Shown: in pieces, positions 5,403-52,602 of the stretch
How the letters are laid out: the number at the start of each line of letters is the position of its first letter
Position numbering within the stretch: position 1 is the first letter of the stretch
Source: an uncultured Gammaproteobacteria bacterium
GTDB taxonomy: Bacteria; Patescibacteriota; Patescibacteriia; VMEV01; CAZAJQ01
Direction of reading: 5' to 3'
Length of the DNA stretch: 64,000 nt
Assembly: GCA_964485795.1 (NCBI GenBank)
Contig: CAZAJQ010000005.1
Span: 4,678 to 68,677, forward strand
The notes under the pieces: generated by a model
What the model was told of the DNA's origin: nothing
Databases searched by the model: none
Seen by the model: only the letters and a program-made list of their open reading frames with translations
Made by a program: the position numbers and the translations under genes

Positions 5403-5634
5403 ATCGAATTTTTCCATAGTATGGTACTCAAACCTAATATTCAACCTCACTTTTTCTCTTCGTATTTCGTTGCTTTAAACATGGAAAAAAATGAAGCTGC
5501 ACTGTTAAGTCAATTATTCATAAGGCATCAAGAAATAAAAGGATAATTTTTTTAAAAAAAAATGACTCACCGAGCGGATTGATTTTTCACCACTCTCACT
5601 CATTTTCGGTGAAAACATTGAAAAATTCCTGACA

Positions 5635-17011: not shown

Positions 17012-18139
17012 TTGAGGGATTTTTTTATTGAAAGCCTTTTTTGTTTTTCTTACATTATGCGAAGCGATCTCCCCCACCTTTTGGCCCTGAGCCAATGTCC
17101 GCTTGTCGGAAATACGTCCCTCCAAAAAATGAAAAAACATTTCGGCGATTTCGACGCGGCGTCGAAGGCGGCAATGACCGAGCTGCAAAAAGCGGGACTC
17201 AATGCAAAACAAATCGAAAACTTGTCGCAACACAAAAAGACCTTTGATTCATCGGCGTATTTTGCGGAAACGAAACGAAAAAACATCCGCATCACAACGC
17301 TCTGGGACAGTGACTTTCCGAAACTCCTCAAAGAAATTTATCGTCCGCCAAGCATACTCTACAGCAAAGGAAATTTTTCACTCTGCGACTCCGTATGCGT
17401 GGCCGTGGTGGGGTCTCGGAAAATGACGCCTTACGGGAAAAAAGTAGTCACCAAAATCACGGAAAAACTTTGCGAACACGGTATCACGGTGGTCAGCGGC
17501 TTGGCTCTCGGAATCGACGGCGAGGCTCATAGCGTTTGCCTGCAAAACGGCGGCAACACCATCGGCGTTTTGGCTTCGGGAATCGAAACCGTTTATCCGT
17601 CAGCGCATCACCCTCTGGCGAATCAAATCTCGCAAAAAGGGCTTCTCCTTTCCGAATTTCCCATACATGCCAAACCCGCCAAAGAATACTTCCCCATCCG
17701 CAATCGCATCATCGCGGGACTTGCAAAAGCCACCATCATCGTGGAGGCCAAAGAAAGGTCCGGAGCGCTTATCACGGCGTACAGCGCGCTCGAAAACAAT
17801 CGCGAAGTGGTGAGCGTCCCGGGAAATATCGACCAGCCCGGATCAAAAGGGACCAATGAACTCATCTCCAAGGGCGCAAAAATGTATCGCTCGTTTCAAG
17901 ACATTCTCGACATTCTCAATATCGATCCCCGTCCGAGCGCGACACCTCGATATATTGCGGAAAATGAAATTGAGAAGTATATTTTAAAACGTCTTTCGGA
18001 CGGCATGCTCGAAGTGAACTTGCTTTTGGCCGACGCCGCGTATCCGAAGTCTCAAATGCTCGCAACCATTTCACTGCTGGAGCTCAAAGAAGTGATCGCA
18101 AAAAACGGCACCGCCGTTTCGATGAAATCCATGACATAG
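17012..18139 (+). CDS. dprA: DNA processing protein DprA (Smf)
   Basis: 375 aa. Rossmann-like core VAVVGSRKMTPYGKKV ... VVSGLALGIDGEAH ... ERSGALITA typical of DprA. The true start may be the internal Met at about 17057. Confidence 0.8.
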   Translation: MRDFFIESLFCFSYIMRSDLPHLLALSQCPLVGNTSLQKMKKHFGDFDAASKAAMTELQKAGLNAKQIENLSQHKKTFDSSAYFAETKRKNIRITTLWDSDFPKLLKEIYRPPSILYSKGNFSLCDSVCVAVVGSRKMTPYGKKVVTKITEKLCEHGITVVSGLALGIDGEAHSVCLQNGGNTIGVLASGIETVYPSAHHPLANQISQKGLLLSEFPIHAKPAKEYFPIRNRIIAGLAKATIIVEAKERSGALITAYSALENNREVVSVPGNIDQPGSKGTNELISKGAKMYRSFQDILDILNIDPRPSATPRYIAENEIEKYILKRLSDGMLEVNLLLADAAYPKSQMLATISLLELKEVIAKNGTAVSMKSMT

Positions 18140-19513: not shown

Positions 19514-21727
19514 ATGACGCTCGCAAGTAAAAAAATCAGTTCACAACCGCATACATTAACAAGCATTATAAAAGTCTGCATAGGGGAATCGCCGACAAAG
19601 GCGAAGACCCTTACGAAATTCCTGTCGGCCGACTATAAGGTCATATCGTCGTTTGGTCATGTGCGCGATTTGCCGAAATCAAAAATCGGCGTGGATGTGG
19701 AACATGATTTCACGCCGCAATACGTGATCCCCCCCAAGGCAAAAAAACATGTCAAAGAAATCCATGAACTCGCTCAAAAAGCCGATGAAGTCATCCTCGC
19801 CACCGATGAAGACCGCGAAGGAGAAGCGATCGCTTGGCATCTGCTTACGGCCGCAAAACTCGAGGCAAAGCCCCATCAGCGCATCGTATTCCATGAAATC
19901 ACCAAGAAAGCCATCGAAGCGGCCCTCAAAAATCCGCGAACGATACAGATGGATCTGGTGAACGCCCAGCAGGCGCGAAGAATCCTCGATCGTCTCGTGG
20001 GTTACGAACTTTCTCCTCTGCTTTGGAAAAAAATCGCTCGAGGCCTCTCGGCGGGACGCGTACAATCCGTGGCCGTGCGTCTCATCGTGGAACGCGAACG
20101 CGAAATAGAACAATTCAAACCTCAGGAATATTGGTCCATAAACGCGAATTTTCAAAAAGACGGCATTGATTTTTCCGCATCGCTCGTCAAAAAAGACGGA
20201 AAAAAACTGGATAAATTCGCGATTCCGTCGCAAACCGACACGCAAATGATCGTCAATGACCTCTCAGGGTCGAAATATATCGTGTCAACGATCGATAAAA
20301 AGGAAATCAAAAAACGTCCTCTGCCTCCCTATACGACGAGTACCTTGCAGCAGGATGCCTCCAATAAACTCGGCTACTCGGCCAAGCAAACCATGATGCT
20401 GGCGCAAAAACTTTACGAATCCGGATATATCACCTATATGAGAACGGATTCGCAAAACCTTTCCGCCGACGCGGTCGCCAATGCAAGAACCTTCATCGAA
20501 AATAATTTTGGAGCCGCGTACCTGCCGGATGCTCCGATATTCTATAAAACTTCAAAAAAAGGAGCGCAGGAAGCCCATGAAGCCATTCGCCCAACAAATC
20601 CGACCGCGAAAAAAATCGATAATCTCGAGCCCAAACAAGCCAAAATCTATGATCTTATCTGGAGCCGCATGATGGCCTGCCAAATGACCCCGGCGATTTT
20701 TGATTCGACGGCCGTCGAGATCAGTGCGAGCAACTACACTTTCAAAGCCAATGGATCAATTTTGAAATTTGACGGCTATCAAAAAGTCTATCGCATGCAA
20801 AGCAAAGAAACCGTCTTGCCCGCATTGAAAACGCAAGAAATTTTGGACTTCAAATCTTTGACTCCGGAGCAACACCACACCGAACCGCCCGCTCGATACA
20901 CCGAGGCCGGACTTGTCAAAACTCTCGAAGAATACGGAATAGGCCGCCCGTCGACCTATGCGCCCACGATCAGCACGATTCAGGAACGCAATTATGTCAT
21001 CAAAAACGAAGACAAGCGCTTCGTACCGACGGATATCGGAAAAACCGTGAATGATATGCTGGTGGAACATTTCCCAAACATCGTCGATAGGGAATTTACC
21101 GCTCACATGGAAGAAGATCTTGACGCGATCGCCGAGCACGGGAAAAACTGGGTGAATATTCTTCAAAATTTTTACCGACCTTTCAAAAGCAACCTTGCGG
21201 AAAAAGAGAATATCCTCTCAAAAAAAGAACTTACCGAACAGAAAACCGATGAACTCTGCGACAAATGCGGATCGCCGATGGTGATCAAAGTCGGAAGGTT
21301 CGGAAAATTTCTGGCTTGCAGCAACTATCCGGACTGCAAGAATACCAAACCGCTCGGCGAGGACGGGAAAAAAGAAGAACCCGAAGTGACCGAAGAAAAG
21401 TGCGACAAATGCGGGTCGCCGATGGTGATCAAGCATGGCAGATACGGGAAATTCCTCGGGTGCAGCCGCTATCCTGAATGCAAAAACATCAAAGCCATCA
21501 CCAAAGGAACCGGGGTCGCATGTGCCAAATGCGGCGTCGGTGAAATCGTCGAAAAGAAAAGTAAAAAAGGTCGCATGTTTTATGCTTGCAATCAATATCC
21601 CTCCTGTGACTTTGCGTTGTGGTCCAAGCCTACCGGTGACAAATGTAAAATCTGCGGATCTCTCATGATCGCGGCTGGAAAAAATAAGACAAAATGCTCA
21701 AACAAGGAATGCGAAAAATCCAAATAA
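19514..21727 (+). CDS. topA: DNA topoisomerase I with four C-terminal C4 zinc ribbons
   Basis: 737 aa. TOPRIM (IGESPTKAKTL, ATDEDREGEAIAWH), the active-site Tyr region (YITYMRTDS) and repeated CxxC..CxxC ribbons (CDKCGSPMVIK...). The annotated ATG may be upstream of the true start. Confidence 0.9.
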   Translation: MTLASKKISSQPHTLTSIIKVCIGESPTKAKTLTKFLSADYKVISSFGHVRDLPKSKIGVDVEHDFTPQYVIPPKAKKHVKEIHELAQKADEVILATDEDREGEAIAWHLLTAAKLEAKPHQRIVFHEITKKAIEAALKNPRTIQMDLVNAQQARRILDRLVGYELSPLLWKKIARGLSAGRVQSVAVRLIVEREREIEQFKPQEYWSINANFQKDGIDFSASLVKKDGKKLDKFAIPSQTDTQMIVNDLSGSKYIVSTIDKKEIKKRPLPPYTTSTLQQDASNKLGYSAKQTMMLAQKLYESGYITYMRTDSQNLSADAVANARTFIENNFGAAYLPDAPIFYKTSKKGAQEAHEAIRPTNPTAKKIDNLEPKQAKIYDLIWSRMMACQMTPAIFDSTAVEISASNYTFKANGSILKFDGYQKVYRMQSKETVLPALKTQEILDFKSLTPEQHHTEPPARYTEAGLVKTLEEYGIGRPSTYAPTISTIQERNYVIKNEDKRFVPTDIGKTVNDMLVEHFPNIVDREFTAHMEEDLDAIAEHGKNWVNILQNFYRPFKSNLAEKENILSKKELTEQKTDELCDKCGSPMVIKVGRFGKFLACSNYPDCKNTKPLGEDGKKEEPEVTEEKCDKCGSPMVIKHGRYGKFLGCSRYPECKNIKAITKGTGVACAKCGVGEIVEKKSKKGRMFYACNQYPSCDFALWSKPTGDKCKICGSLMIAAGKNKTKCSNKECEKSK

Positions 21728-22376: not shown

Positions 22377-24176
22377 TCAGGGTCGCTGGAATTTTTTTGC
22401 GAGTTCATCCCATGTGATATTCCACATGCAGGGTCTTCCGTGGGGACAAGAGATGACGCGATGTTTCCGAATATCTGAAAGCAAGGCGACTTGTTCCGCT
22501 GAAGTGAGACGATCGCCGAATTTTACCGCCGCACGACATGCGGCGGATTTTTTTATGGCCTCTTTTTTTTCTTCGACGCTCGAAAGTTTCGCGAACGATT
22601 CGTCGCTGATATCCTCCACCATGTCAATGATTACTTTTTTGACGTCTTTGATCACGATCGCGGACGGAACGCCGGAAATCAGAAAAGTGTTGACGCCAAA
22701 AACTTCGATATCAAACCCCACCCCCTTCATCGCGGAAACATGTTCACCGAGGACGGACATTTCTTGCGCCGAAACCTCAAGCGTGATCGGCAACAAAAGC
22801 GCTTGAATTTGCGCATCGACGGTTTCATCGGACATCCGGTCAAAAAGAATACGCTCGGCCGCGGCATGCTGATCGATGATCATGAGATGATGGCACACCT
22901 CCACAAGCAGATACGAATCGTGAATCTGCCCCAAGAGCCGCCATTCATCTTGACTCTCGGTGATCGACGATTGGATCTTTGGCGTTTCCGAAACGATATC
23001 GGTGTCTTGCAACAATGCTTTCTGAAATTTCATTGTTTCGGAAATCGTAACTTGCGAGAAATTTTTCGGCCCGCGCCCAGAGTCTGAAGTTGAAAAGGAT
23101 CCGATTACGGGCGCAGATGGCATTGCTTGCGAATATTGCGACACGGGATTCGTACGAAATGAAAAAACGTCTCTTTTGAAATTTTCGGACTTTCCGTCAT
23201 TTTTCATTTTTTCCTCGACCGCCGAAACGATCAACCGATACACGGTCTGAGGCGCCAAAAATTTCACTTCGCTTTTTCGCGGATGCACATTCACATCGAG
23301 CAAATGCGGGGAAACATCCAAACGACAAACAAAAACGGGATATTCGCCTTTGGGTATCACGTTCGCAAAGGCATCTTTGAAGGCTCTTGATATCATCGCA
23401 TCAAATACCGATCTTTGATTGACAAAGAGAAATTGGCTTTGCCGATGGGCTCGATGAATGCGAGGATCCGCAAAAAATCCGGAGACCTCATAGTCCGCAA
23501 TTTTTTTTTGAAATGAAACGAGATTCTTTCCAACTTCGGAGCCGAGCACCTCTTTCACCCTTTCCATCCAAAGGTTTTGAGGAAAATAATGAACGACTTT
23601 TTTCCCGTTGTGAAAACATTGAAAACCTTTTTGAAAAAATAAAAGGGAAAAATCCGTAAAAATTTTCAAGCAATGCGAAAATTCGGTGCTTTCGTTTTTC
23701 AAAAATTTTTTTCGAGCCGGAATATTGTAAAAAAGATCATCCACGATCACCGTCGTTCCGTCCGGCAAGGCACTTTCGCTGAAGCGTCTTTCTCCTCCGT
23801 CCATGCTCGCTTGGGATCCGGTCAGGTCGCTTCGAGATTTGGTTTGCAAGGTGAATTTCGAGACGCTTGATATGGAAGCCAACGCTTCGCCTCGAAACCC
23901 AAACGTATTCAATCGATAAAGATCATCGATACTTTCGATCTTGCTCGTCGCATACCGCTCAAGACCGTTGATCACGTCATCGCGACGCATGCCGATGCCA
24001 TCATCCGTCATGCGAATAAACCGTTTTCCGCCGTCTCGCAGCTCGAGGATGATGTTACTCGCTTGGGCATCAAGCGCGTTTTCGATGAGCTCTTTCACGA
24101 CGCTTCCGGGTCTTTCCACGACCTCGCCGGCCGCGATTTTATTGATAACGTCTTGGGAAAGTTTTGTTATGGGCAT
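22377..24176 (-). CDS. mutL: DNA mismatch repair protein MutL
   Basis: GHKL ATPase motifs (ELIENALDA, DDGIGM) and the C-terminal dimerisation domain. The ATG at 24176 is preferred over the track's TTG-initiated N-terminal extension to 24224. Confidence 0.85.
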   Translation of the reverse strand: MPITKLSQDVINKIAAGEVVERPGSVVKELIENALDAQASNIILELRDGGKRFIRMTDDGIGMRRDDVINGLERYATSKIESIDDLYRLNTFGFRGEALASISSVSKFTLQTKSRSDLTGSQASMDGGERRFSESALPDGTTVIVDDLFYNIPARKKFLKNESTEFSHCLKIFTDFSLLFFQKGFQCFHNGKKVVHYFPQNLWMERVKEVLGSEVGKNLVSFQKKIADYEVSGFFADPRIHRAHRQSQFLFVNQRSVFDAMISRAFKDAFANVIPKGEYPVFVCRLDVSPHLLDVNVHPRKSEVKFLAPQTVYRLIVSAVEEKMKNDGKSENFKRDVFSFRTNPVSQYSQAMPSAPVIGSFSTSDSGRGPKNFSQVTISETMKFQKALLQDTDIVSETPKIQSSITESQDEWRLLGQIHDSYLLVEVCHHLMIIDQHAAAERILFDRMSDETVDAQIQALLLPITLEVSAQEMSVLGEHVSAMKGVGFDIEVFGVNTFLISGVPSAIVIKDVKKVIIDMVEDISDESFAKLSSVEEKKEAIKKSAACRAAVKFGDRLTSAEQVALLSDIRKHRVISCPHGRPCMWNITWDELAKKFQRP

Positions 24177-24191
24177 ACTTGTCCGATAAAC

Positions 24192-24222
24192 GAATACGCT
24201 CTTTTTTCCAAAGAGCGTATTC
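24192..24222 (-). terminator. Perfect 12-bp inverted repeat between the giant gene stop and the mutL start
   Basis: gaatacgctctt-ttttcca-aagagcgtattc. Candidate terminator for the giant gene transcript. Confidence 0.35.
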
Positions 24223-24245
24223 AAAGTGAAAAAATGGTTGCATCG

Positions 24246-27200
24246 CTACAGGACGGACTGTTTTTTCATAGCGACATCGACATTGACGATGGCCTCGTCT
24301 TTTTTGATGTCCAGCACTTGATTGGCCTTGTACACAGGGTGGTCGCTTCTCAAAGCCTTTGCCTCCGACAGAGGTTCATATCCGGTCTTTTTCACCTGCA
24401 GCTGATACTTCCCGGCTTTCGGCAGAAAATGGTACCTCCCCTCATAATCCGTAAGCCTTGATTTTAAGAGCTTCCCATACTCCGCGTCAATAATATTGAT
24501 CACCGCCAGCGCTATCGGCATCCTTGTGGCTGCATCGTACACCACTCCCCATGAACGGAGCGCCTTGGGACTGAATACCTTTTGCGCCAACCCAAACATC
24601 ACGTACAGCCAGAGTATCACCGTATTCGTCAGATTGAAACTTCCATACGTCAGAAGCACGCTTCCCGTCAACCCTATCCACAGTACCGGGCCGGATACCT
24701 TCCGTATGGCCGCCTTCATCTCGTACCATATATTCCCAAGAACGCTCATCGCAAGCTTTTCTTCCTTCACATCCGTCGGGTCTATCGGAATATTCACTCG
24801 TATGGTCACTCCTTCCCTCCCCAGCGTCAACGCTCCTCCAAGGTACAAATCTTCATATCCCGCATCCGCTCTCGTTCCAGCGGGAATCAGCTTCGATATC
24901 CCGGCATATCCCTGCTTTTGCACCTCAAGTCGATACCTTCCCTCCTTCACGAGGAATCCCAATCGACCTTGTCCGTCGGTGACGGTCGTGGAAATCAGAC
25001 GCGGTTTGGCGTTTGGCGTAGCCGTATCAACGCTGTACAATCTCACGATGGCCAATGACACCGGTTCCTTCGTGATGCTGTCATACACGACTCCCCAAGG
25101 TTGTTTCTTCTTCTTGATCCCCAGTACCGAGAGCAGCCATGAGATGAAATGATACAGGTATGCCCAGATATGCGGAATATTCGCCGCTATCGCGGGGTTC
25201 AGCAACGTCACCACCGGCGCTATAGCGATCAAGGCCACCTGGCTTGGCTTCTCCACCTTTTGTATATTCTCTTTCACTGCCAATGCGCTCTCTTTGAGTA
25301 TCCTCACCGCTTCCTGCGCCGTGATTTGCACCAAACTTTGTTCTTCCGGAATCGATATTTCCTTCCATCTCACCAGTCCTTCGAGGCTTGCGTTTCCCAA
25401 AGTGACTCTTTCGCTTCTCAGTCTTCCTTTTCGCAGCTCCGCCGTCACCGCTACGCTCTTTCGCTTTTGCGCTTCCTCCGACGTGATCGCAATCTCATCA
25501 TAGGGCACATACAGTTTCCAATTCCCATTTTCATCACTTTGCACTCGGAACGTCCCGTATTCTCCAAACGTCACATACACTTCGCTTCCCGGCGTCGCCG
25601 TTCCGGACATGGTAAATCCTTCGCTTCCGGCGTCTATGCTTCCAGTGATCGAGAATCCTTCTTCGATCAACGCCTGCTCCTCGGCCGTCGCATCTTGCGG
25701 CAATTCACCGACTCCGATACCTCCGTTTTCAAACGTTGTTTGCCCTTGCGGGTATCCTCCGACAGGGCCTTCTCCTCCCGGCTGCGTCCCGGGCTCGCTT
25801 CCCGGCTTCTTGCCGGCTTCTTCGCTCGGCGGGGATACCGGCTCGGGCGGCACTTCCGCAACAGTTTGCGGCTTGGGTGCTTCCACGATATCCACCCCTA
25901 CCGGCGTTTCTATCACTCTTTCCTGCGGAACCTCCTCCGTCGGAGGCGCTTCCTCACTCGGCACTTCGGGTTGCGGTGGACAATTTTCTTTACACGGTTC
26001 GGTCGGCAACGGCGATATCGGCAGCTGCGACGGCGGTATCACGCTTCTCTCTATCCCGCTTTCCGTGATCCCAAAGTACTTGCTCGTCACAGCGATCCCC
26101 GCTCTTCTCGCGTTCGGGTTATTGGGATCCAGCGGCGGATTCAAAGGATTCATCACCAGATTCGAAAACACCGTATTGAACCCTTCCGCATAATTTACAC
26201 TTGCTTGATTGATCAATATCCCGGGCGTTCCCACATTGCTCGGTAATTGTATTTTAAATTCCACATACCCGATCTGATTCACATTCACATTTCCGATGGT
26301 CCATACGCTCGCTCCTCCGGCCGTTGTTCCTCCGTCTCCCACATTTTGTCCGTCTTGCACTCTCGATCCGCTCACATACCCGACCTTGCTTGAAATCGGG
26401 TTGGTGATCACCACTCCCGTGGCTTTTGCGCTTCCCACGTTCTTGTACTGGATCTGATACACGATCGTATCCCCGGGGATCACTTCTTCTCCATTGTCCG
26501 CATACACCTGCTGCGCATACGTTCCCTGTTTCAGAAACATGATTCCCAAGATACCTTCCGCCATTACAACGACGCTTGCTATCCCCACCCATGCATGCAC
26601 CAAACGATGATGTCTTCTATGCACTCCGAAACTGCTGAAAAACGTCCCGTTCTTGTGTCTCTTCGCCACACTCTCAAACACCTCCACCGGATTTCCCGTC
26701 ACGATTTGTTTTTTAAACTTCATCACCAGCTTCATCTTCTGCCACCACGTGTATTTCCTTCTCCCGCTCAACAGTCCGGCGTTCTTGATCAATATTCTCA
26801 TCGAGTGCAACACCCCGTACAGCAATCCGCAGAGAACCATTCCGAGGATGATGAAAAGTATTTTCCCCCACTCTTTCTGAAAAGCGTATCCTGACACTTT
26901 CGCACGTTTCACCGTCTCTCTTGCGTTTGAAAGCTGTGCATCGACAACTTCTTCGGCCGCTTGCGCTTCGGGGATTTGCCCGAGCTGAGCACTGACTACT
27001 GATTGCTGACTCGGTATCACCCCCACATTCAGCGCTATCACCATCCTCGGGGGATTGATCTGCTGAGTTTTGACCGGAAGTTTGAAGCTGTACACCGTCT
27101 CCAATCCGTCCCCGTTTCTTGTCTTCACTCGAAATTCATACACCGTATTGGGTGTCAGATTGCTGAATTTGTAAAAACTCTTCTGCAGCCATCCGCTCGT

Positions 27201-30200
27201 CTGGATATTCCCGTTGCTCGTATTCACCGCTTCATAGAAATATGCCGTTTGTCCTCGGTAATCCTGCACTTGCTTGAGCACATCTCCTTCCGTGATCTGC
27301 TCCACATCCGCGGTGATGGTGTACCCGGCCGCTTGCGCTTGCGAGACGTCTATCACTCCATCCACTTGTATCTCGATTTCCCTGTCGCTGACCTGGATCG
27401 GTTGCACTCCTTTGGGAACTTCCGCGAGGGTGTACACGGTGGCGGTGTTTGACGCAGACGAGCTCCCCACCACGTTGAACGATTTCACTCGTCTCGTGTA
27501 TTTCGTATTGGCTTTGAGTCCGGTTTCTTCGAGGAAGGAAAGATCGCTCGTCGCATTCGGCAACGTGTCCAGAACTTTATTCCCGTTCGCATCCTCCAGT
27601 ATGAATCCCGTTTCATTGCTCGCCGTATCCGTGAAATTCCATCGTATCACGCTGCCGCTCAAGGGTGTCGGAACTCCGATAACCGGTCCCGACGGCGCGC
27701 TCGGCACCACGGGTATGCTTCCTCCCTTCGTGTAATTGAATGATGACGTTTGTCCGCATACTCCGATATTCCCGTCATTTGGCTCTATGGCAAAGATCAG
27801 ATTTTGCTGACTGCTCGTGAAATCCACTCCCGTATTCCACACGTATACATGGTCGGCTCCGGGCGTAAGCGCCGTGCTCAAACTCGTCACTCCTTGCGAT
27901 GCAGGGCTGGTCGCCGCCGTGTCTTCCGTAAGCGGGCTGACAAAGGTCGTACCTCCGTCCAATGAATACTTCGGCGTGATATTCGCCGTTCCCACCACCG
28001 TGTCGATGAGCTTGTAATTCATCACCACGCTCGATCCGCTCGCCGACGTCGGCGTCGTGATCGTCGCACTTGCGGGGTTGTTGTTATTCAGCTTAAACGT
28101 ATTCGTCGTTCCGGCGGTTCCGGCTCCGTTCAATGCGTCCGAGGGGGTGATGCGAAACTTCATCGTGCTGTTCACCGTACTCGGCAAATTCGTCGCCGAG
28201 GCCCAGATGAAGGTATGCGACACTCCCGCCACGGAACTTGCCAGTCCCGATGTCCCGTCTCCTCCTCCGGACGTCGCCGTATTCCAGCTGCTCCCGTTAT
28301 CCGTCGAATACTGCGCCACTATGCTCAGGCTGTCCGAGTTCGCATCCACAAGGCTGTAGGTGATCGTGATATTTCCGTTCACCGCTCCGCATGATGTCAG
28401 ATTCGTCACCGTCGCCACCGGCGCGTTGTTGTTGTCCACTCGAAAATTCCCCGTCTCTCCGGCCACGCTTCCCCCGTTCAAAGGCGTTACTCGGATGCGG
28501 ATCAAACTGTTATCCGTGTTCGGCGCATCCGTCATCGACGCCCATTGAAACGTTTTACTCGGCGTTCCGTTTGGCGTCGTCGTCTGCGAAATCGTACACG
28601 GTACCGATGATCCCGACGTCGCGCGGCAGCTGTCTCCTCCCGCCGACGTCGCCGCGCTCCAGGTGCTCCCTCCGTTCGTCGAATACTCGATATTGATGCT
28701 TGTGGATGCCGATCCCACGTCTGACAATGTGTAGCTGATCGGGATCGTGCCGCTTTGGCTTCCACTCGGCGTCGTCACCGTCGCATAGACCCCTCCGCTG
28801 CCGGTTCCGGACAAAACGATTTGAAACCCATCTCCTATAGGGTTCTTTTTCGCCCTCATCCTCAAAAGCGCACTCGCGCAACCCGAACACTGTGCGCTTG
28901 CGTCCCACACGAACACATGGGCAGTGCCTGTTCCGGCCGTCGCCGTCAATCCCACTTTGCCTTCCGACGCTCCTCCGCCGTCCGTGGCTGTCGTCCACGT
29001 CACTCCGCTGTCCGTCGAGAATTCCGGTGTGATGTCGTAGGAATTGGTAAATCCGGTGTCCTCGGTGAACAAACGGTGGTTGAAAGTGATATCCGTTGTT
29101 CCTAAAGTTCCCGACGTTGATGTCAATGTCGATCCGATCGTGTCGATGTAGGCCGTGCCTGCGCTACCACCTCCCGCACCGTTCGCAGTGATGTTGCTTG
29201 GTGTTAAACCCAACGCCGTATTCGCGGCATTGTAAATAATGGCAACTCGACCACCGCCTCCATTGCCGGCGCCTCCTGCAGTAACCGTTCCCGCACCCGT
29301 TATGGTGCCGCTTGAAGTTAAAAGTTTCACCGTACCTCCGGCTCCATTCCCTGATCCATCTGCCCGAATCCCTCCGCTCACGGTAATGTTCGTAGCGGAA
29401 ATATTGACAATGCCACCTCCATTTCCACTCGTACCTCCGGAACCGGGTAACGTTGGATTCTCTACGGAATCATAGACTCGGGTTCCCGACGCGCCACTGC
29501 CTGTACCTCCATGACTTCCGTTCGTATCAGCGACAGAATCGCACAATCCGTTGGCGGTATTCAATCGCGCGGTAGGACAGCCTCGCGCGTTCACATCGAT
29601 CAAACCATTCGTATTGACCGTAAGCGCATTCACCACCGTCAAATCCAATTTTCTCGTAACCGTCGACGTGGACGGTAAATGGGTAAGAGCATTGTTTCCG
29701 ACGCCACCGGGATCGTTGATGGTGACATTTTTAAAAGTAATCGCTCCTTCGAGATTTACATATCCAAAAGAAACCGCTAGATTAACGGTGTTTGGATTGA
29801 TCGTCGCAAACATGCTCGATTTTATCATTATCGACCCGGATGCCAACCCGCTGTGATATGTAATACTGTTTGTATCCGTCGTCGTGTTCCGTAAAAGCAC
29901 GGTTCCTCCGCCGGTCCCGGCTTTATCCGTGCCCGATGACCATGAAAAAGCATTAAGCGTAGTCAGAGCATTATCAGTCGTACCCTGAATGAAAATACGT
30001 CCGCCACCTCCTCCACCGGTATCAGTCCTCGCTTCAACGGTTCCTGTGCCTGTGAATGATCCGGTCGCAACCAATTTAATCGCGCCACCGGCAGCATCTC
30101 CGCTGCCTCTATTTGCGCGAATTGTCCCATTGACGACTATATTCCCCCCGGCTGAAATGCGTATCACTCCACCGCCTGCCGCGCCGGCAGCGGAACCGGA

Positions 30201-33200
30201 TCCGGGATATGAAGGATCATCAATAAAATCGTATGTACGATCAATGATATCCGCCGTAGCGACTGAATGTCCGGCGGCACCATGACTCCCATACGTATCG
30301 GCCGCCAAACTGCATTTCAAATCGCTCAACGATGGATTAAATCGAGTAGCTCCGGGACAGCCTAACCCATTCGCATCAATAAACTCTCCAGAGTCTACCG
30401 TTAAATCATTCACGACCGTCAAATCCAATTTGTTCGTCTGTGTAGCCGTGCTTGCGAAATGCGATAATTTCGAAAACCCCCCGCTCGATACCACATGTAC
30501 AGTCTTAAACGTTATCGCCGAAGGAAGTTTAATAATCCCAAAATTGATATTCAAATCAACGAGATTCGAATTTAACGCGCTAAACATCGATGGCGTATAC
30601 GTCGCATATGCGTTACCATTCCCCGTATGCATATCCATGGTGTACGTACTCGCTGTCGTGTTTCTCACCAGGACGCTGCCTCCACCTCCGCCGGGATTCA
30701 TATTCGCATAAGCAGTTCGTAACCCGGTATGTGTAATGGTTGCCGCCTCAATGTATAAACGACCGGCTCCGCCGGTTCCCGATGCAGCCGTTCTGACTGT
30801 AATTTCACCAGCCCCACTCAATGTTCCGGAAACGATAAGTTTGATACTTCCTCCCGCCCCGGATCCGCTACCGGTACCTGCTCGTATCGTTCCGCTCGCC
30901 ACGATGTTCGCTGCAGTAATTTTTATTACACCATCACCCGCGGACGTTGCTGAGCCGGATCCGGGATATTGCGGATCATCTATATAATCATAAATTCTAC
31001 TTAAAGCATTCGCTTCCGTGATACTCACCCCAACTCCTCCATGACTCCCTTCACTGTCCGCAGCCAAACTACACTTATTATCACCTCCCGCCGATGAAGG
31101 ATTGAATCGAGTCGTAGAAGGACAGCCGAGCCCATTCGCATCAATAAATTCTCCAGAGTCTACCGTTAAATCATTCACGACCGTCAAATCCAATTTGTTC
31201 GTCTGTGTAGCCGTGCTTGCGAAATGCGATAATTTCGAAAACCCCCCGCTCGATACCACATGTACAGTCTTAAACGTTATCGCCGAAGGAAGTTTAATAA
31301 TCCCAAAATTGATATTCAAATCAACGAGATTCGAATTTAACGCGCTAAACATCGATGGCGTATACGTCGCATATGCGTTACCATTCCCCGTATGCATATC
31401 CATGGTGTACGTACTCGCTGTCGTGTTTCTCACCAGGACGCTGCCTCCACCTCCGCCGGGATTCATATTCGCATAAGCAGTTCGTAACCCGGTATGTGTA
31501 ATGGTTGCCGCCTCAATGTATAAACGACCGGCTCCGCCGGTTCCCGATGCAGCCGTTCTGACTGTAATTTCACCAGCCCCACTCAATGTTCCGGAAACGA
31601 TAAGTTTGATACTTCCTCCCGCCCCGGATCCGCTACCGGTACCTGCTCGTATCGTTCCGCTCGCCACGATGTTCGCTGCAGTAATTTTTATTACACCATC
31701 ACCCGCGGACGTTGCTGAGCCGGATCCGGGATATTGCGGATCATCTATATAATCATAAATTCTACTTAAAGCATTCGCTTCCGTGATACTCACCCCAACT
31801 CCTCCATGACTCCCTTCACTGTCCGCAGCCAAACTACACTTTAAGTCTCCACTATCCGGATTAAATCTTGCACCTATTGGACAGCCTCTCCCATCGCCCG
31901 TAACCGTCCCATTCGTATTCACGGTCAACGTCTGCACCACCGTCAAATCCATCTTCCGAGTCACGGTCGCGGTTGACGGCAAATGCGTCAAACTGTTATT
32001 CGCGCCGCCCGTATCGATCATGGTGACATTTTTGAAAGTAATCGCTCCCTCCAGATTCACATGTCCAAAAGAAATCGACAAGTTCACCGTATTGGGATTG
32101 ATGGTTGCAAACATCGAGGACTTGATGAGGAGTGACCCAACAGCCAACCCACTATGATAGGTGATGCTATTCGTATCACTCGTCGTATTGCGAAGAAAAA
32201 CAGTACCTCCGCCAGTGCCGATCTTCGCCGCGCCGGCTGACCATGAAAAAGCATTCAACGTTGTCAACGAATTATCCGTTGTTCCTTGTATAAAAATTCT
32301 TCCTCCTCCTCCGGTTCCCGTGTCGGTTCTCGCTTCAACCGTGCCTGTTCCGGTGAATGATCCGGTAGCAACTAATTTAATCGCACCGCCGGCAGCATTT
32401 CCGCTCCCTCGATTCGCACGGATCGTGCCATTCACAACCATGTTTCCGCCCGCGGAAATTCTGATAACCCCGCCGCCGGCCGTTGCGTCAGACGCGCCCG
32501 ATCCAGGGTACAAAGGATTATCAATGAAATCATAAACTCGATCCTCGATGTCGGCGATTCCGACATCATTCCCTGCACCCCCGTGACTGCCTTGAGCATC
32601 GGCTAATTCGCTGCAAATAAAAGTTGTTTTATTGAATCTCTTTGAGGCTGGGCAACCCTTACCATTCGCATCAATGAATGTTCCCGCGTTCACCGTCAAA
32701 TTCCCTGTCAAAACGATGTCCATCTTTTTATACGTCGTGCTCGAATCCGAAATCGTGTGCGTCAAAATCGCCGCGTTCTGCAATGTCAAACTCGCAAACC
32801 CGTTCGCACCGGTAAAATCTCCCGTCATGTTTACCGTAATTCCGTCAATCACTATGTCGTCACCGGCAAATGTTCCCGGCGTGACCGTGCATTCTACGGC
32901 CGCGCAATTCGCCGTTTTCCAAGCGGCGTCGAGCGTCTGAATCGCGGCTATATGAAAATCTCGTTTCTTCTCTCCACTTTCTTCGAAAAACGATACATGC
33001 TCTCCTTCGTTCAAGAGATTTTCAAATATACCCATCACTTTCCCTTGCAAACCTTCTCTTTCCAGCGGTAAATATGTTTCACCGAAAAACGCCGCCGCTT
33101 CAAAAACGCTTCTTGAAGCATCCATACGACTCAAAACAAAAAAACCTCCCACCATGATGCATCCAAGGGTGAAGGTTTTTAGAATTTTTTTGAAATCTCT

Positions 33201-33257
33201 TTTTTTATTTTTACGATTCACCATAATATAAAAAAATATTCCGCGACATCCAGTCAC
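24246..33257 (-). CDS. Giant (3003 aa) multi-domain cell-surface protein. It has an N-terminal TM/signal and five Gly-rich parallel-beta-helix-like modules of about 255-380 aa. It also has four Asp-box (BNR, SxDxGxTW) repeats, two FN3-like domains and a DUF11 domain. Further along are a Pro/Glu-rich linker, an Ig-like domain, and two CarboxypepD_reg/transthyretin-like domains separated by clusters of internal TM helices.
   Basis: Single uninterrupted ORF. Motifs read from the translation: GSHGG.G...YD.IDDP.YPGSGS repeated five times; STDSGVTW / STNGGSTW / STDNGSSW / SLDGGTTF; TVTNxG-type DUF11 segment VIPGDTIVYQIQYKNVGSAKATGVVITNPI; YRLEVQKQGYAGIS and YQLQVKKTGYEPLS beta-sandwich motifs. Hydrophobic stretches appear at roughly residues 2040-2060, 2630-2680 and 2790-2860. 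The alternative start Met is at 33224. Confidence 0.8.
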   Translation of the reverse strand: MTGCRGIFFYIMVNRKNKKRDFKKILKTFTLGCIMVGGFFVLSRMDASRSVFEAAAFFGETYLPLEREGLQGKVMGIFENLLNEGEHVSFFEESGEKKRDFHIAAIQTLDAAWKTANCAAVECTVTPGTFAGDDIVIDGITVNMTGDFTGANGFASLTLQNAAILTHTISDSSTTYKKMDIVLTGNLTVNAGTFIDANGKGCPASKRFNKTTFICSELADAQGSHGGAGNDVGIADIEDRVYDFIDNPLYPGSGASDATAGGGVIRISAGGNMVVNGTIRANRGSGNAAGGAIKLVATGSFTGTGTVEARTDTGTGGGGRIFIQGTTDNSLTTLNAFSWSAGAAKIGTGGGTVFLRNTTSDTNSITYHSGLAVGSLLIKSSMFATINPNTVNLSISFGHVNLEGAITFKNVTMIDTGGANNSLTHLPSTATVTRKMDLTVVQTLTVNTNGTVTGDGRGCPIGARFNPDSGDLKCSLAADSEGSHGGVGVSITEANALSRIYDYIDDPQYPGSGSATSAGDGVIKITAANIVASGTIRAGTGSGSGAGGSIKLIVSGTLSGAGEITVRTAASGTGGAGRLYIEAATITHTGLRTAYANMNPGGGGGSVLVRNTTASTYTMDMHTGNGNAYATYTPSMFSALNSNLVDLNINFGIIKLPSAITFKTVHVVSSGGFSKLSHFASTATQTNKLDLTVVNDLTVDSGEFIDANGLGCPSTTRFNPSSAGGDNKCSLAADSEGSHGGVGVSITEANALSRIYDYIDDPQYPGSGSATSAGDGVIKITAANIVASGTIRAGTGSGSGAGGSIKLIVSGTLSGAGEITVRTAASGTGGAGRLYIEAATITHTGLRTAYANMNPGGGGGSVLVRNTTASTYTMDMHTGNGNAYATYTPSMFSALNSNLVDLNINFGIIKLPSAITFKTVHVVSSGGFSKLSHFASTATQTNKLDLTVVNDLTVDSGEFIDANGLGCPGATRFNPSLSDLKCSLAADTYGSHGAAGHSVATADIIDRTYDFIDDPSYPGSGSAAGAAGGGVIRISAGGNIVVNGTIRANRGSGDAAGGAIKLVATGSFTGTGTVEARTDTGGGGGGRIFIQGTTDNALTTLNAFSWSSGTDKAGTGGGTVLLRNTTTDTNSITYHSGLASGSIMIKSSMFATINPNTVNLAVSFGYVNLEGAITFKNVTINDPGGVGNNALTHLPSTSTVTRKLDLTVVNALTVNTNGLIDVNARGCPTARLNTANGLCDSVADTNGSHGGTGSGASGTRVYDSVENPTLPGSGGTSGNGGGIVNISATNITVSGGIRADGSGNGAGGTVKLLTSSGTITGAGTVTAGGAGNGGGGRVAIIYNAANTALGLTPSNITANGAGGGSAGTAYIDTIGSTLTSTSGTLGTTDITFNHRLFTEDTGFTNSYDITPEFSTDSGVTWTTATDGGGASEGKVGLTATAGTGTAHVFVWDASAQCSGCASALLRMRAKKNPIGDGFQIVLSGTGSGGVYATVTTPSGSQSGTIPISYTLSDVGSASTSINIEYSTNGGSTWSAATSAGGDSCRATSGSSVPCTISQTTTPNGTPSKTFQWASMTDAPNTDNSLIRIRVTPLNGGSVAGETGNFRVDNNNAPVATVTNLTSCGAVNGNITITYSLVDANSDSLSIVAQYSTDNGSSWNTATSGGGDGTSGLASSVAGVSHTFIWASATNLPSTVNSTMKFRITPSDALNGAGTAGTTNTFKLNNNNPASATITTPTSASGSSVVMNYKLIDTVVGTANITPKYSLDGGTTFVSPLTEDTAATSPASQGVTSLSTALTPGADHVYVWNTGVDFTSSQQNLIFAIEPNDGNIGVCGQTSSFNYTKGGSIPVVPSAPSGPVIGVPTPLSGSVIRWNFTDTASNETGFILEDANGNKVLDTLPNATSDLSFLEETGLKANTKYTRRVKSFNVVGSSSASNTATVYTLAEVPKGVQPIQVSDREIEIQVDGVIDVSQAQAAGYTITADVEQITEGDVLKQVQDYRGQTAYFYEAVNTSNGNIQTSGWLQKSFYKFSNLTPNTVYEFRVKTRNGDGLETVYSFKLPVKTQQINPPRMVIALNVGVIPSQQSVVSAQLGQIPEAQAAEEVVDAQLSNARETVKRAKVSGYAFQKEWGKILFIILGMVLCGLLYGVLHSMRILIKNAGLLSGRRKYTWWQKMKLVMKFKKQIVTGNPVEVFESVAKRHKNGTFFSSFGVHRRHHRLVHAWVGIASVVVMAEGILGIMFLKQGTYAQQVYADNGEEVIPGDTIVYQIQYKNVGSAKATGVVITNPISSKVGYVSGSRVQDGQNVGDGGTTAGGASVWTIGNVNVNQIGYVEFKIQLPSNVGTPGILINQASVNYAEGFNTVFSNLVMNPLNPPLDPNNPNARRAGIAVTSKYFGITESGIERSVIPPSQLPISPLPTEPCKENCPPQPEVPSEEAPPTEEVPQERVIETPVGVDIVEAPKPQTVAEVPPEPVSPPSEEAGKKPGSEPGTQPGGEGPVGGYPQGQTTFENGGIGVGELPQDATAEEQALIEEGFSITGSIDAGSEGFTMSGTATPGSEVYVTFGEYGTFRVQSDENGNWKLYVPYDEIAITSEEAQKRKSVAVTAELRKGRLRSERVTLGNASLEGLVRWKEISIPEEQSLVQITAQEAVRILKESALAVKENIQKVEKPSQVALIAIAPVVTLLNPAIAANIPHIWAYLYHFISWLLSVLGIKKKKQPWGVVYDSITKEPVSLAIVRLYSVDTATPNAKPRLISTTVTDGQGRLGFLVKEGRYRLEVQKQGYAGISKLIPAGTRADAGYEDLYLGGALTLGREGVTIRVNIPIDPTDVKEEKLAMSVLGNIWYEMKAAIRKVSGPVLWIGLTGSVLLTYGSFNLTNTVILWLYVMFGLAQKVFSPKALRSWGVVYDAATRMPIALAVINIIDAEYGKLLKSRLTDYEGRYHFLPKAGKYQLQVKKTGYEPLSEAKALRSDHPVYKANQVLDIKKDEAIVNVDVAMKKQSVL
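30395..31924. repeat. Tandem duplication inside the giant gene: two copies with a 765-bp period, about 683 bp 100% identical
   Basis: Plus-strand shadow ORFs 30736..30987 and 31501..31752 are identical in sequence. 30430..30711 matches 31195..31476. Manual comparison shows identity from about 30395-31077 vs 31160-31842. The flanking modules are diverged paralogs. Confidence 0.8.
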
Positions 33258-44912: not shown

Positions 44913-47513
44913 TTACACTTCCTTGTCTCTCTTCATCTTTTCCTTCCATTCATGCATCTTCTGGAGAGCCAAAAATGGAGTCATGTGTTCGACTTCAATG
45001 CATGAAAGCTCCTCGAGGACGGGATGAGAAGCGCGAACAACCGTATTCAGCGGAAGAGGAAGCTGCCCGACGGGCATTTTTTTTTGATCGCGCTCCAATT
45101 GTTTCAGAATACTTTTCGCTCGCTCGACAACTTTTTGCGACATGCCCGCAAGCTTGGCCACTTCGACGCCATAGCTCTTATCGATGCCTCCGGGAACCAC
45201 CTTGCGCAAAAAAAGAACGCCATCCTTGTCGTTTTCTTTCACGAGTACGCAATAATTTTTCACTGCGGATAAATCGTTTGAAACCGCCATAAGCTCATGA
45301 TAATGCGTCGCAAAAAGCACACGAGCCCGAATATCGTCGTGCAAATGCTCCATCAAAGCCCAAGCGATGGCAACCCCGTCATAGGTGCTCGTACCGCGCC
45401 CCACCTCATCCAAAATGATAAAGCTTTTATGGGTCGCCTGCGCCACAATGGCGGCGGCTTCCTGCATTTCGACCATAAAAGTGGATCTTCCGGATACCAG
45501 ATTATCCGAAGCTCCCACCCTCGTGAAAATACGATCAACCGGAGCGATTTCGGCGGTCGATGCCGGAACAAAGGCTCCCATATGAGCCATTAATACTATC
45601 AAGGCGTTTTGTCGCAAAAAACTTGATTTTCCCGCCATATTCGGCCCGGTGAGCAGCATGAGCCGGCAATCGTCATCCATGAGCAAATCATTGGGTATAT
45701 AGGCTTCTTTTTGCAAAGTTTCGATGACCGGATGCCTTCCGCCGACGATTCTCAAAGGCTTCCCCTCGTCCACGATCTTTGGCCGCACATAGGATCGCTC
45801 GCGGGCAAGGCAAGCGAAATCGGAAAGGACGTCGATTTCCGCTATCACGGAAGTCGTTTTTTGCATATTTCTCAGTGAAAGAGAAATTCTTTGTATCAAT
45901 GCATCAAAGATTTTGCTTTCCAAAGCGTACATCTTTTCTTCGGCTCCCAAAATTTTTTCTTCATATGCCTTGAGCTCGGGAGTGACGAATCTTTCGGCAT
46001 TCACCAAGGTTTGCTTGCGAATATAGTCTTTGGGCACATCCTTTGCGGCCGCTTTTGAAATTTCAATATAGTATCCGAAGACTTTATTAAACTTGATTTT
46101 CAAAGTCGAAATTTTGGTTCTTTCCACTTCTCTTTTTTTCATCTCCGAAAGGTAGGCCATGCCTCCGCGAGAAATGTTTCTCAATGCATCCAGCTCGGCG
46201 TCAAACCCGTCGGCAATGGCCCCCAATGAAGGCATCAGGGCCGGTGGTTCGGAATGCAACGTTTTTTCTATCATGGAAACGACGTCTTCGTGAAGAAAAA
46301 AATTTTCCAAAAGCGTCTTGGCTCTTTCGGATACGAAATTCGAAAGCAATGCGCGAAGCTCGGGCAATATCACAAGGCTGTGTTTGAGCGCTAGGATATC
46401 TCTGGGCGAAGCCCTTCTGCTGCCGATCTTGCCCATAAGCCTTTCCATATCCGAAATCTTTCTCAGCAGATCGCATGTTTCTTTTCGAACGTCACTTTTT
46501 TGCACCCATTCCTCCACCAGATCAAGTCGAGATTCGATTTCGTTTTTTGAAAGCAGGGGATGAAGCATCCATTGACGAAGCATTCTTCCTCCCATGGCAG
46601 TGCAGGTTTTATCAAGCGTTGAAATCAAGCTTCCCTCATAAGCGCCGGTCTGCGAAGTGAACAGCAATTCCAAGTTTCGAATCGTGGTCTCGTCAAGAAT
46701 CATGCCGCGATCAAAATTCGCCAAGCGCACCTGCGTGAGATGCGGTAAAGTCGTCTTTTGAGTTTCCACCAGATAAGAAAAAAGATGTATGGCGGCCAAA
46801 AGGCCTACGGGCACTTGATTGAATCCGTATTGACCGAAATCCGCGATATGAAAATGTCGCTGAAATGTTTCTTTCGGATCCGGCCAGCTGCCCGGCGCAT
46901 AGCTCTGAAAAGGAATGTTTTTTATGATTTCAATGGCCTCCGGATGCTTGGAAAGTCCTTCGGAAACGATCATTTCCGATGGTTGCATGAGAAATATTTG
47001 ATTTTTCAGAGTTTCAAAAGCGACGGTTTCGGCGATGCAAAATTCACCGGTGCTGAAGTCGGCCCAAGCCACTCCCCATGTGTTTTTTTCTCTGAGAAGA
47101 CTGACCAAATAGTGATTTTTCTTTCGTTCAAGGATTGCCTCTGAAAAAGTGGTGCCCGGGGTGATTATCCTTGTCACGGCGCGATCGACGATACCCTTTT
47201 GACTCGGATCCGAAACCTGTTCGCATATGGCGACCTTTTTTCCGGCGGCCGTAAGCTTGCTCACATAATTTTCGGCCGCATGATGGGGAACGCCGCACAT
47301 GGGGATCTCGTGTTCGGTGCCTCGATTTCGCGAAGTGAGGGTGATATTCAATATTTTTGACGCCAGCATAGCATCATCTCCGAACATCTCATAAAAATCG
47401 CCCAAGCGAAAAAAAAGGATGGCATTCTTGTGCTTTTTTTTTATTTCAAAATATTGGGCGAGCATGGGCGTCATATGCATGTGTGGAAACTTTTTTGTAT
47501 TAAAGTCCGCCAT
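44913..47513 (-). CDS. mutS: DNA mismatch repair protein MutS
   Basis: 866 aa. Mismatch-binding N-terminus TPMLAQYFEIKKKH...FFRLGDFYEMF, Walker A GPNMAGKSSFLRQ, and an ABC-signature-like STFMVEM. Confidence 0.9.
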   Translation of the reverse strand: MADFNTKKFPHMHMTPMLAQYFEIKKKHKNAILFFRLGDFYEMFGDDAMLASKILNITLTSRNRGTEHEIPMCGVPHHAAENYVSKLTAAGKKVAICEQVSDPSQKGIVDRAVTRIITPGTTFSEAILERKKNHYLVSLLREKNTWGVAWADFSTGEFCIAETVAFETLKNQIFLMQPSEMIVSEGLSKHPEAIEIIKNIPFQSYAPGSWPDPKETFQRHFHIADFGQYGFNQVPVGLLAAIHLFSYLVETQKTTLPHLTQVRLANFDRGMILDETTIRNLELLFTSQTGAYEGSLISTLDKTCTAMGGRMLRQWMLHPLLSKNEIESRLDLVEEWVQKSDVRKETCDLLRKISDMERLMGKIGSRRASPRDILALKHSLVILPELRALLSNFVSERAKTLLENFFLHEDVVSMIEKTLHSEPPALMPSLGAIADGFDAELDALRNISRGGMAYLSEMKKREVERTKISTLKIKFNKVFGYYIEISKAAAKDVPKDYIRKQTLVNAERFVTPELKAYEEKILGAEEKMYALESKIFDALIQRISLSLRNMQKTTSVIAEIDVLSDFACLARERSYVRPKIVDEGKPLRIVGGRHPVIETLQKEAYIPNDLLMDDDCRLMLLTGPNMAGKSSFLRQNALIVLMAHMGAFVPASTAEIAPVDRIFTRVGASDNLVSGRSTFMVEMQEAAAIVAQATHKSFIILDEVGRGTSTYDGVAIAWALMEHLHDDIRARVLFATHYHELMAVSNDLSAVKNYCVLVKENDKDGVLFLRKVVPGGIDKSYGVEVAKLAGMSQKVVERAKSILKQLERDQKKMPVGQLPLPLNTVVRASHPVLEELSCIEVEHMTPFLALQKMHEWKEKMKRDKEV

Positions 47514-47639: not shown

Positions 47640-48656
47640 ATGCCCGTAGATGAAATCGATCAGCGCATCATCACCACTTCCCCACTGCCGAGCGATTCGG
47701 ATGCTCCCGTTTCTTTGCGTCCGCAGCTGCTCGATGACTTCATCGGACAAGAAAAAAACAAAAAACAGCTATCCATATTCATACAAGCCGCCAAGCAAAG
47801 AAAGGAACCCATAGAACATACCTTGCTCTATGGCCCCCCGGGACTCGGGAAAACCACCTTGGCGCATATTCTTGCGAAGGAAATGAACGTGAATATCCGC
47901 ATCACGGCCGGACCCGCCATCGAAAAAAGCGGAGATCTGGCGGCGATCCTCACCAATCTTTCAGCGGGTGATATCCTCTTTATCGATGAAATCCATCGTC
48001 TCAATCGCATCATCGAGGAAATTCTCTACCCGGCCATGGAAGACTATGCTCTGGACATCATCATCGGCAAAGGGCCATCGGCGCGAACGCTTCGTCTGGA
48101 TTTGCCGAAGTTCACGCTGATCGGCGCCACCACCAAGGTCAGCTCGCTTTCCGCGCCTCTTCGCGACCGATTCGGAGCCACGATTCATTTTCAATTTTAT
48201 ACCCAAGACGAAATGGAAAAAATTGTCCGTCGTTCCGCAAAAATCATGGATATCGAGCTTGAACCCGACGCGGCCAAAGAAATATCATCCCGATCAAGAC
48301 GCACTCCGCGCATCGCAAACCGCATTTTGCGTCGCATACGCGATTTCGCACAAGTCAATGGAGATGGTATAATACGGCTTAACACGGCCGAGGAAGCCCT
48401 TGACATGCTTGAAATCGACGCAAGCGGCCTTGACGCCACGGATCGAAGCATCCTTTCCATCATCATCGAAAAATACAAAGGCGGTCCGGTGGGGCTCAAT
48501 ACTTTGGCGGCCGCAACCGGCGAAGAGCAAGAAACCATCGAAGACGTTTACGAACCGTACCTGATTCAAACCGGATTCCTCGAAAGAACCCCCCGCGGCA
48601 GAATGGCCACGATGAAATCCTACCAACATTTGGGACTCACCTTTCAACCCTTATGA
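47640..48656 (+). CDS. ruvB: Holliday junction branch migration helicase RuvB
   Basis: Walker [14 protein letters not shown], Walker [11 protein letters not shown], sensor residues, and a C-terminal winged helix. Confidence 0.9.
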
Positions 48657-52366: not shown

Positions 52367-52602
52367 ATCAAAAATCAATGTCATCGGCTTTCAAAGAGAA
52401 AAAGGCCAATAATGAATAAAATCATTCGTATTGTAGCATGGGAAGACCGACGACGATAGAAGAGACGCTGCTTTCGTTTTCGACGATATCCTCCATCCAT
52501 ATTCACGGATCAAAACGCGATCCGCCCTCGATGAAAAACAAAAACACCCGCCATAATGACGGATGTTTTTGAAAAAGTCGAGGTTATTACGAATTGATGA
52601 TC

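Follow-up and report, generated by a model that had tools for sequence, protein, structure and literature searches.

How can two neighbouring modules of one gene be identical, base for base, over most of their length, while a short junction between the identical parts is strongly diverged? This question is raised by a giant gene that lies in a 64,000-nucleotide (nt) stretch of contig CAZAJQ010000005.1, from an uncultured, ultra-small bacterium, the whole of which stretch was analysed and is called here the window. The gene encodes a predicted surface protein with five modules of about 255 amino acids (aa), numbered M1 to M5 along the protein, and the identity concerns M2 and M3. The pattern of differences inside and beside the identical tract indicates that M2 and M3 are probably old paralogues, of which 692 nt were recently homogenised by intragenic gene conversion.

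Extent and edges of the repeat

When the sequence is compared with itself base by base at an offset of 765 nt, positions 30385-31076 of the window equal positions 31150-31841 without a break, being 692 nt with 0 mismatches. The period of 765 nt corresponds to 255 codons, so the repeat is in frame, and the two copies are adjacent, direct and head-to-tail. A preliminary description of this DNA had already recorded two adjacent, perfectly identical copies with a 765-bp period in the giant gene, which this comparison bears out; the coordinates given there (30395-31077 and 31160-31842, 683 nt) place one boundary 10 nt and the other 1 nt away from the true one, and the junction between the copies, rightly described as diverged, measures 73 nt instead of about 80 bp. 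The repeat is reported by a general repeat search, whereas Tandem Repeats Finder, whose longest period is 500, is blind to it. No other long repeat is found in the window except an older paralogy within the same gene and a short repeat of zinc ribbons in the TopA gene. The parts of the locus are the following, each tail and junction being given with its sequence.

24246..33257 (-): giant gene, 9012 nt, 3003 aa, GTG start, from the open reading frame list and its translation
31842..31860 (-): x0, the junction that precedes U1, ...DSGDL, where the M1-type sequence ends; IGARFNPDSGDL
31150..31841 (-): U1, the upstream copy of the identical tract (gene nt 1417-2108, aa 473-703), extending over most of M2 and into the first ~30 residues of M3
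31096..31149 (-): t, the 54-nt tail after U1 when read along the gene, aa 703-721; EFIDANGLGCPSTTRFNPS
31077..31095 (-): x1, the junction that separates the copies, ...SAGGDN, within the Cys-to-Cys loop of the module, which has more indels than any other segment of the module family; STTRFNPSSAGGDN
30385..31076 (-): U2, the downstream copy of the identical tract (gene nt 2182-2873, aa 728-958), extending over most of M3 and into the first ~30 residues of M4
30331..30384 (-): t', the 54-nt tail after U2, aa 958-976; EFIDANGLGCPGATRFNPS
30312..30330 (-): x2, the junction that follows t', ...LSDL, with the A'-type module M4 beyond it; GATRFNPSLSDL

In gene order, the locus reads x0, the first U at 1417-2108 with its 54-nt tail t, x1 of 19 nt, the second U at 2182-2873 with its 54-nt tail t', and x2. 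The two sides of the tract behave differently. Just upstream of U1, the identity at offset 765 falls to background. On the low-coordinate side, 54 nt more can be aligned (30331-30384 with 31096-31149), with 11 mismatches (80% identity), and the final 19 nt of the period (31077-31095), which include a length difference of 2 codons, are unalignable. If differences were evenly spread, the probability that all 11 alignable ones fall in the last 54 of 746 positions would be ~3e-13, and chance is therefore excluded as the cause of their clustering.

The nature of these differences is informative about the age of the two modules. The ~171 synonymous sites inside the tract show no difference. Between t and t', over 19 codons, 8 of ~14 such sites differ, giving a proportion of synonymous differences (pS) of 0.565, a synonymous divergence (dS) of ~1.05, a nonsynonymous divergence (dN) of 0.10 and a dN/dS of ~0.1; for comparison, pS is 0.73 in the old pair M1/M4. 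By Fisher's test, tract and tails differ with p = 1e-13 when all nucleotides are counted and p = 1e-10 when only synonymous sites are (0/171 versus 8/14). Such divergence in the tails is the signature of a long divergence under purifying selection. Diversifying selection as the cause of the junction divergence was considered and rejected, the differences being mostly synonymous. A junction converted from another module of the same gene was also rejected, the end of M3 being closest to that of M2 (80%) and 52-64% identical to those of M1 and M4. Moreover, x1, which is 2 codons longer, can be aligned with neither x0 nor x2 and is no chimera of the two.

Gene conversion is favoured over a fresh duplication because the identity covers less than a whole unit and ends sharply, the adjoining 19 codons stand at dS ~1 and the junction is not a hybrid. 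Identical tracts that span part of a unit, which recur in three homologues described below, also count in its favour. Of the three options raised in the preliminary description (very recent duplication, gene conversion and length variation by recombination), the second is thus the one supported. Near-identity between paralogues bounded by far more diverged homologous sequence, as expected of conversion, is found at this locus, and the mosaic of tracts differing in extent or age among copies that also marks conversion is seen in the homologue P0004 and in the graded 3' decay of four genes described below.

The proposed sequence of events would begin with a one-way homologous recombination between M2 and M3 that copied 692 nt, possibly as the latest of several such events. 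On the 5' side, the tract ends at a hypervariable, indel-bearing Cys-bounded loop (Cys-loop), where the copies would be too unlike for the heteroduplex to extend, and on the 3' side it fades over ~54 nt. The mechanism would be a RecA-type gene conversion, with the heterology of the loop setting the 5' limit of the tract. MutS, MutL and RuvB reject mismatched heteroduplex and move junctions; the presence of RuvB, MutS, MutL and DprA in the same window is counted in favour of conversion. A long direct repeat is a good substrate for RecA-dependent unequal recombination, as known from the instability of bacterial tandem repeats. A change of copy number via the in-frame 692-nt repeat is plausible, and unequal recombination would be likely to remove or add one 255-aa module in frame, altering the length of the beta-solenoid-like part.

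Modules of the giant protein and its homologues

The modules were delimited by motif anchors and a profile hidden Markov model (HMM), a BLASTP self-comparison having returned only the identity match. Their order along the gene is A-B-B-A'-C, with the following HMM coordinates.

32001..32777 (-): M1, type A, aa 161-419
31242..32000 (-): M2, type B, aa 420-672
30477..31241 (-): M3, type B, aa 673-927
29700..30476 (-): M4, type A', aa 928-1186
29028..29696 (-): M5, type C, terminal and more degenerate, aa 1188-1410, HMM score 131

The HMM scores of M1-M4 are about 440-465, whereas M5 reaches 131. M1 and M4 share 74-75% of their protein and 72-74% of their nucleotide sequence at an offset of 2301 nt, and the pairs other than M1/M4 and M2/M3 share 39-57% in protein and about 45-60% in nucleotides. 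The figure of about 85% or less that had been given for the protein identity of the other modules is therefore roughly right. The B type is 47-51% identical to modules 3 and 5 of the homologue P0002, about as near as it is to the A type, and the module types are therefore old. The paralogy at 2301 nt, an offset of three modules, relates 31909-32534 to 29605-30233 with 74% identity and spans most of M1 and the start of M2 against most of M4 and the start of M5. This is out of register with a simple duplication of one module and therefore points to a more complex recombination history of the array.

The modules have the motifs LTH..T, IDV.G.GY/C, a variable Cys-bounded loop, GGSHGG, PG.G, GGAGG and GGGGRIA. 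AlphaFold2 models of one module (aa 420-690; predicted local distance difference test score, pLDDT, 82.5; predicted TM-score, pTM, 0.84) and of two modules (aa 420-930; pLDDT 83.6, pTM 0.87) are almost entirely composed of beta strands. An hmmscan against Pfam and NCBIfam gave no match in the module region (aa 150-1440), including Beta_helix PF13229, a search of PDB sequences with the module profile returned only chance matches to tau, and Foldseek found no match in the PDB at E <= 0.001. The weak Foldseek matches are nearly all beta-helix or beta-solenoid proteins, with E > 0.2 and TM-scores <= 0.2 when normalised by query length. The modules are predicted from these models to be beta-solenoid-like, and the ~255-aa module looks like an undescribed domain family. 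The precomputed family PF28492, which occurs on two homologues, was rejected as the module, being absent from P0001 to P0004, all of which bear modules.

The module profile matches 12,614 cluster representatives at E <= 0.001 and 4,896 at E <= 1e-30. The best-matching members are proteins of 1.2 to 7.4 thousand aa with 4-12 modules each, and the number of modules among homologues overall ranges from 2 to 12. The DNA of five homologue genes was examined for exact tracts between adjacent modules, and three of the five, from different assemblies and lineages, have such a tract, in each case shorter than the period.

P0004 (L003 5001-16253): exact tract of 638 nt in a period of 780 nt, modules 1 and 2
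P0022: exact tract of 454 nt in a period of 987 nt
P0015: exact tract of 362 nt in a period of 1113 nt

Of the other two, P0003 is exactly identical over two lesser stretches, 83 and 74 nt long, inside a block of 87-97% identity, and no exact tract was found in the DNA of the P0002 gene. In P0004, a separate patch of ~170 nt, besides the 638-nt tract of the first two modules, is common to modules 1, 2 and 3, which is a mosaic typical of conversion. In the window gene, as in P0004, P0022 and P0015, the edge on the 5' side of the gene is abrupt and the decay on the 3' side is slower. The 5' edges of these four genes fall at positions 34, 36, 43 and 53/54 of the module profile and adjoin the most indel-rich loop of the module family.

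Long exact repeats are also seen at the protein level. Exact repeats of 68-241 aa within a single protein occur in 8 of the homologues obtained in the first search, and among 136 further representatives of the family, 30 have exact repeats of at least 100 aa and 23 of at least 200 aa, all of the latter lying within module arrays at one or two module periods. Some members have 2.6 to 3.3 perfect copies. Two proteins may be mentioned here, both known as protein only: P0228, with 3.3 perfect copies of a 357-aa unit, and P0194, with 2.8 perfect copies of a 432-aa unit. As read from these genes and proteins, homogenisation and expansion of modules is a trait of the family, of which the window is one instance.

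Alternative explanations

Several points weigh against gene conversion between M2 and M3. The argument for an old divergence draws on just 19-23 codons, the contig is metagenome-assembled, so that the assembler may have smoothed a few real differences between the copies, and recA was not seen in the 64-kb window. A cycle of unequal crossover, in which a module is gained and then lost, leaves a similar footprint that is indistinguishable from conversion. Also, no relative above 35% protein identity was found in 5.8 billion proteins, the GTDB genomes and the JGI metagenomes; the best match in the scan of GTDB genomes is a Peribacteria locus (L004) with 28% identity, and one 32-mer of the repeat, searched exactly, has no match among JGI metagenome contigs. 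Conversion is ordinarily proved by paralogues that are closer to one another than to their orthologues; the best homologue here is 35% identical.

Among the other explanations, a length-variation device of the Periscope type is possible, though doubtful. In this case, the identical DNA would be kept because recombination alters the number of modules, and with it the reach of the surface protein, within a population. The repeat is long, direct and in frame, in a protein predicted to be membrane-anchored and extracellular; the model of two modules is confident as a single body (pTM 0.87), and homologues carry 2 to 12 modules, some of them with runs of perfect copies. However, identity is confined to two of the five modules, the remaining pairs sharing 39-75% in protein, and this identity is explained without selection for variability.

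An assembly artefact is unlikely. It would imply either that the differences between copies were erased by bubble-popping or polishing, or that the copy number is wrong, the loop in the assembly graph having been walked the minimum number of times. In its favour, the contig is a singleton from a metagenome assembly, an exact repeat of 692 nt is longer than short reads and than most inserts, and giant genes rich in repeats are known to trouble assemblers (bioRxiv 10.1101/2023.11.21.568195). Nonetheless, the junction x1 is unique and has tract sequence on both sides, so that reads joining the end of the tract to its start via x1 must exist; because this unique, in-frame junction is flanked by the tract on both sides, at least two copies are real. 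Moreover, the reading frame is open over its full 9 kb, flanks that bear a signature of purifying selection are not what an artefact would create, and the pattern of a partial unit recurs in three further assemblies of different origin, one of which has a long-read-style contig name (contig_83177, ENA), a weak hint taken from the name only. The preliminary caution about miscounted copies consequently holds in part: a higher copy number or a few suppressed differences could be hidden, whereas the existence of two copies is not in doubt.

It is quite unlikely that the sparing of the Cys-loop reflects selection, with the scaffold kept uniform by conversion, the loop kept as a specificity determinant and the perfect repeats driving the gain and loss of modules. 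The single hint in this direction is the common position of the 5' edge, between profile positions 34 and 54, in four unrelated genes. If it were true, the scaffold-homogenising and length-varying processes would form one combined system for host attachment in episymbionts of the candidate phyla radiation (CPR) and in other bacteria with giant surface proteins.

Finally, a new tandem duplication joins the end of the duplicated segment to its start, and this join forms the junction. If unequal crossing-over or slippage had duplicated one 765-nt module in tandem very recently, with mutations yet to accumulate, this would fit two adjacent, head-to-tail and in-frame copies identical over 692 nt, and the family members with 2.6 to 3.3 fully identical units are necessarily recent duplications, but such a duplication predicts two complete identical units where only 692 of 765 nt are identical, a junction that is a hybrid of the outer ones where x1 is neither hybrid nor young, and evenly placed mutations where the differences are one-ended (P ~3e-13), while the last 73 nt of the unit are old, with 8 of ~14 synonymous sites differing, dS ~1 and a 2-codon indel, so that this explanation is very unlikely and the weakest of the three options first proposed.

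Setting of the gene and comparison with known systems

The giant protein begins with a putative N-terminal membrane anchor, which is followed by the five all-beta modules, five immunoglobulin-like (Ig-like) repeats, an fn3 domain and two predicted transmembrane segments; the remainder, towards the C terminus, contains DUF11, a Pro-rich linker, further predicted transmembrane segments and CarboxypepD_reg-like domains. Hydrophobic segments are located at aa 24-43, 2128-2157, 2219-2244 and 2672-2695, and the Pfam and NCBIfam matches are confined to the C-terminal half. From this arrangement, a membrane-anchored, extracellular surface protein is predicted. The protein is identical to the database protein P0001, a singleton on an NCBI contig of 82,401 bp. 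The five Ig-like repeats, of ~100 aa each (window ~27400-28940 (-), aa ~1440-1950), have the common motif S.DGG.TW...AT and only sub-threshold or no-stretch matches to Reelin_subrepeat-B and CHB_HEX_C; the same repeats are present in the homologue P0002. A separate DUF11-repeat protein of 456 aa is encoded at 4080-5450 (-), 19 kb from the giant gene, which itself has DUF11. The G+C content of the giant gene (window 24001-30000) is 52-55%, versus 42-47% in the flanks. The composition of the modules (G 16%, T 13%, A 10%, S 10%) is rich in Gly, Thr, Ala and Ser, and the raised G+C may reflect this composition and not a foreign origin.

The neighbours of the giant gene are housekeeping genes, with MutL directly downstream and TopA, a Mur ligase, DprA and IF-2 close by; a VanW-domain protein is encoded upstream, MutS, RuvB, PolA and PolX are farther off, and four tRNA genes are present in the window. 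The best database matches of TopA are just 58-64% identical, the named ones being from Patescibacteria, Kerfeldbacteria, Paceibacteria or Parcubacteria. Because of these TopA matches and the housekeeping neighbours, the window is assigned, on sequence grounds, to the chromosome of a Patescibacteria (CPR) bacterium without a close sequenced relative. Besides MutL and TopA, further genes for repair and recombination, namely those for MutS, RuvB, PolA, a PolX-PHP polymerase and DprA, are concentrated in the 64 kb. Three features of this neighbourhood are listed here.

22377-24224 (-): mutL, directly downstream of the giant gene
44913-47513 (-), 47640-48656 (+), 49604-52384 (-), 5635-7386 (-), 17012-18139 (+): MutS, RuvB, PolA, PolX-PHP and DprA, listed jointly
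21245-21349 and 21389-21493 (+): direct repeat of 105 nt in the TopA gene, 77% identical, corresponding to tandem C4 zinc-ribbon domains

On the unrelated Logan contig that carries P0002, the giant homologue with 35% identity, mutL (L001 18023-19783) likewise lies downstream of the giant gene, at a distance of a few genes. The presence of mutL beside both giant genes suggests a conserved neighbourhood and, with it, orthology of the window gene and P0002.

Gene conversion of this kind is a well known, textbook process and is ordinary in repetitive surface-protein genes. What is new is the setting, an unannotated family of beta-solenoid-like modules in a giant surface protein of the CPR. Even a streamlined CPR genome would homogenise, and probably resize, its largest surface protein by intragenic recombination. 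About 1 in 6 of the best-matching family members have long perfect internal repeats, and short-read assemblies may under-count modules in the giant gene and in many of its relatives. The module, a widespread repeat without a curated family, would be a good test bed for following the concerted evolution of protein repeats by means of long-read metagenomes.

Among known systems, the Periscope Proteins (SasG, Aap, Rib, Sgo_0707, Esp and CdrA), for which gain and loss of repeats by intragenic recombination has been proposed, resemble the giant protein, itself a predicted surface protein, in their tandem folded domains and in a high DNA identity between repeats that would permit in-frame gain or loss (PMC8201768). 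However, their arrays have many near-identical repeats with documented length variation among strains, whereas two of five modules are identical here, and their units are small Ig-like, SHIRT or G5-E domains in contrast to the ~255-aa beta-solenoid-like module (PMC8201768). An array of highly identical DNA repeats, which defines that class, is not what the giant gene has, M2 and M3 being its only identical modules, and the giant protein does not fit the definition of the class.

Regarding architecture, the modules would resemble the right-handed beta-helix or beta-solenoid surface proteins, such as the passenger of the autotransporter Ag43, tapirins, pectate lyases and phage tailspikes, which are likewise all-beta and repetitive, with Gly-rich turns. 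They differ from the known beta-helix proteins in their own motifs (GGSHGG, GGGGR) and their variable Cys-bounded loop, and have no significant structural match among them.

The closest parallels concern the process. Concerted evolution of prokaryotic paralogues by gene conversion (for example PMC6053082) shares with M2 and M3 a sharp-edged homogenised tract within diverged paralogous sequence, and the giant beta-solenoid surface proteins of Apilactobacillus kunkeei (PMC12863079) have short intragenic recombination tracts of a few hundred nt in the gene of a very large extracellular protein. Compared with both, the partners in the giant gene are adjacent modules of one gene instead of separate genes or alleles, and the host belongs to the uncultured Patescibacteria.

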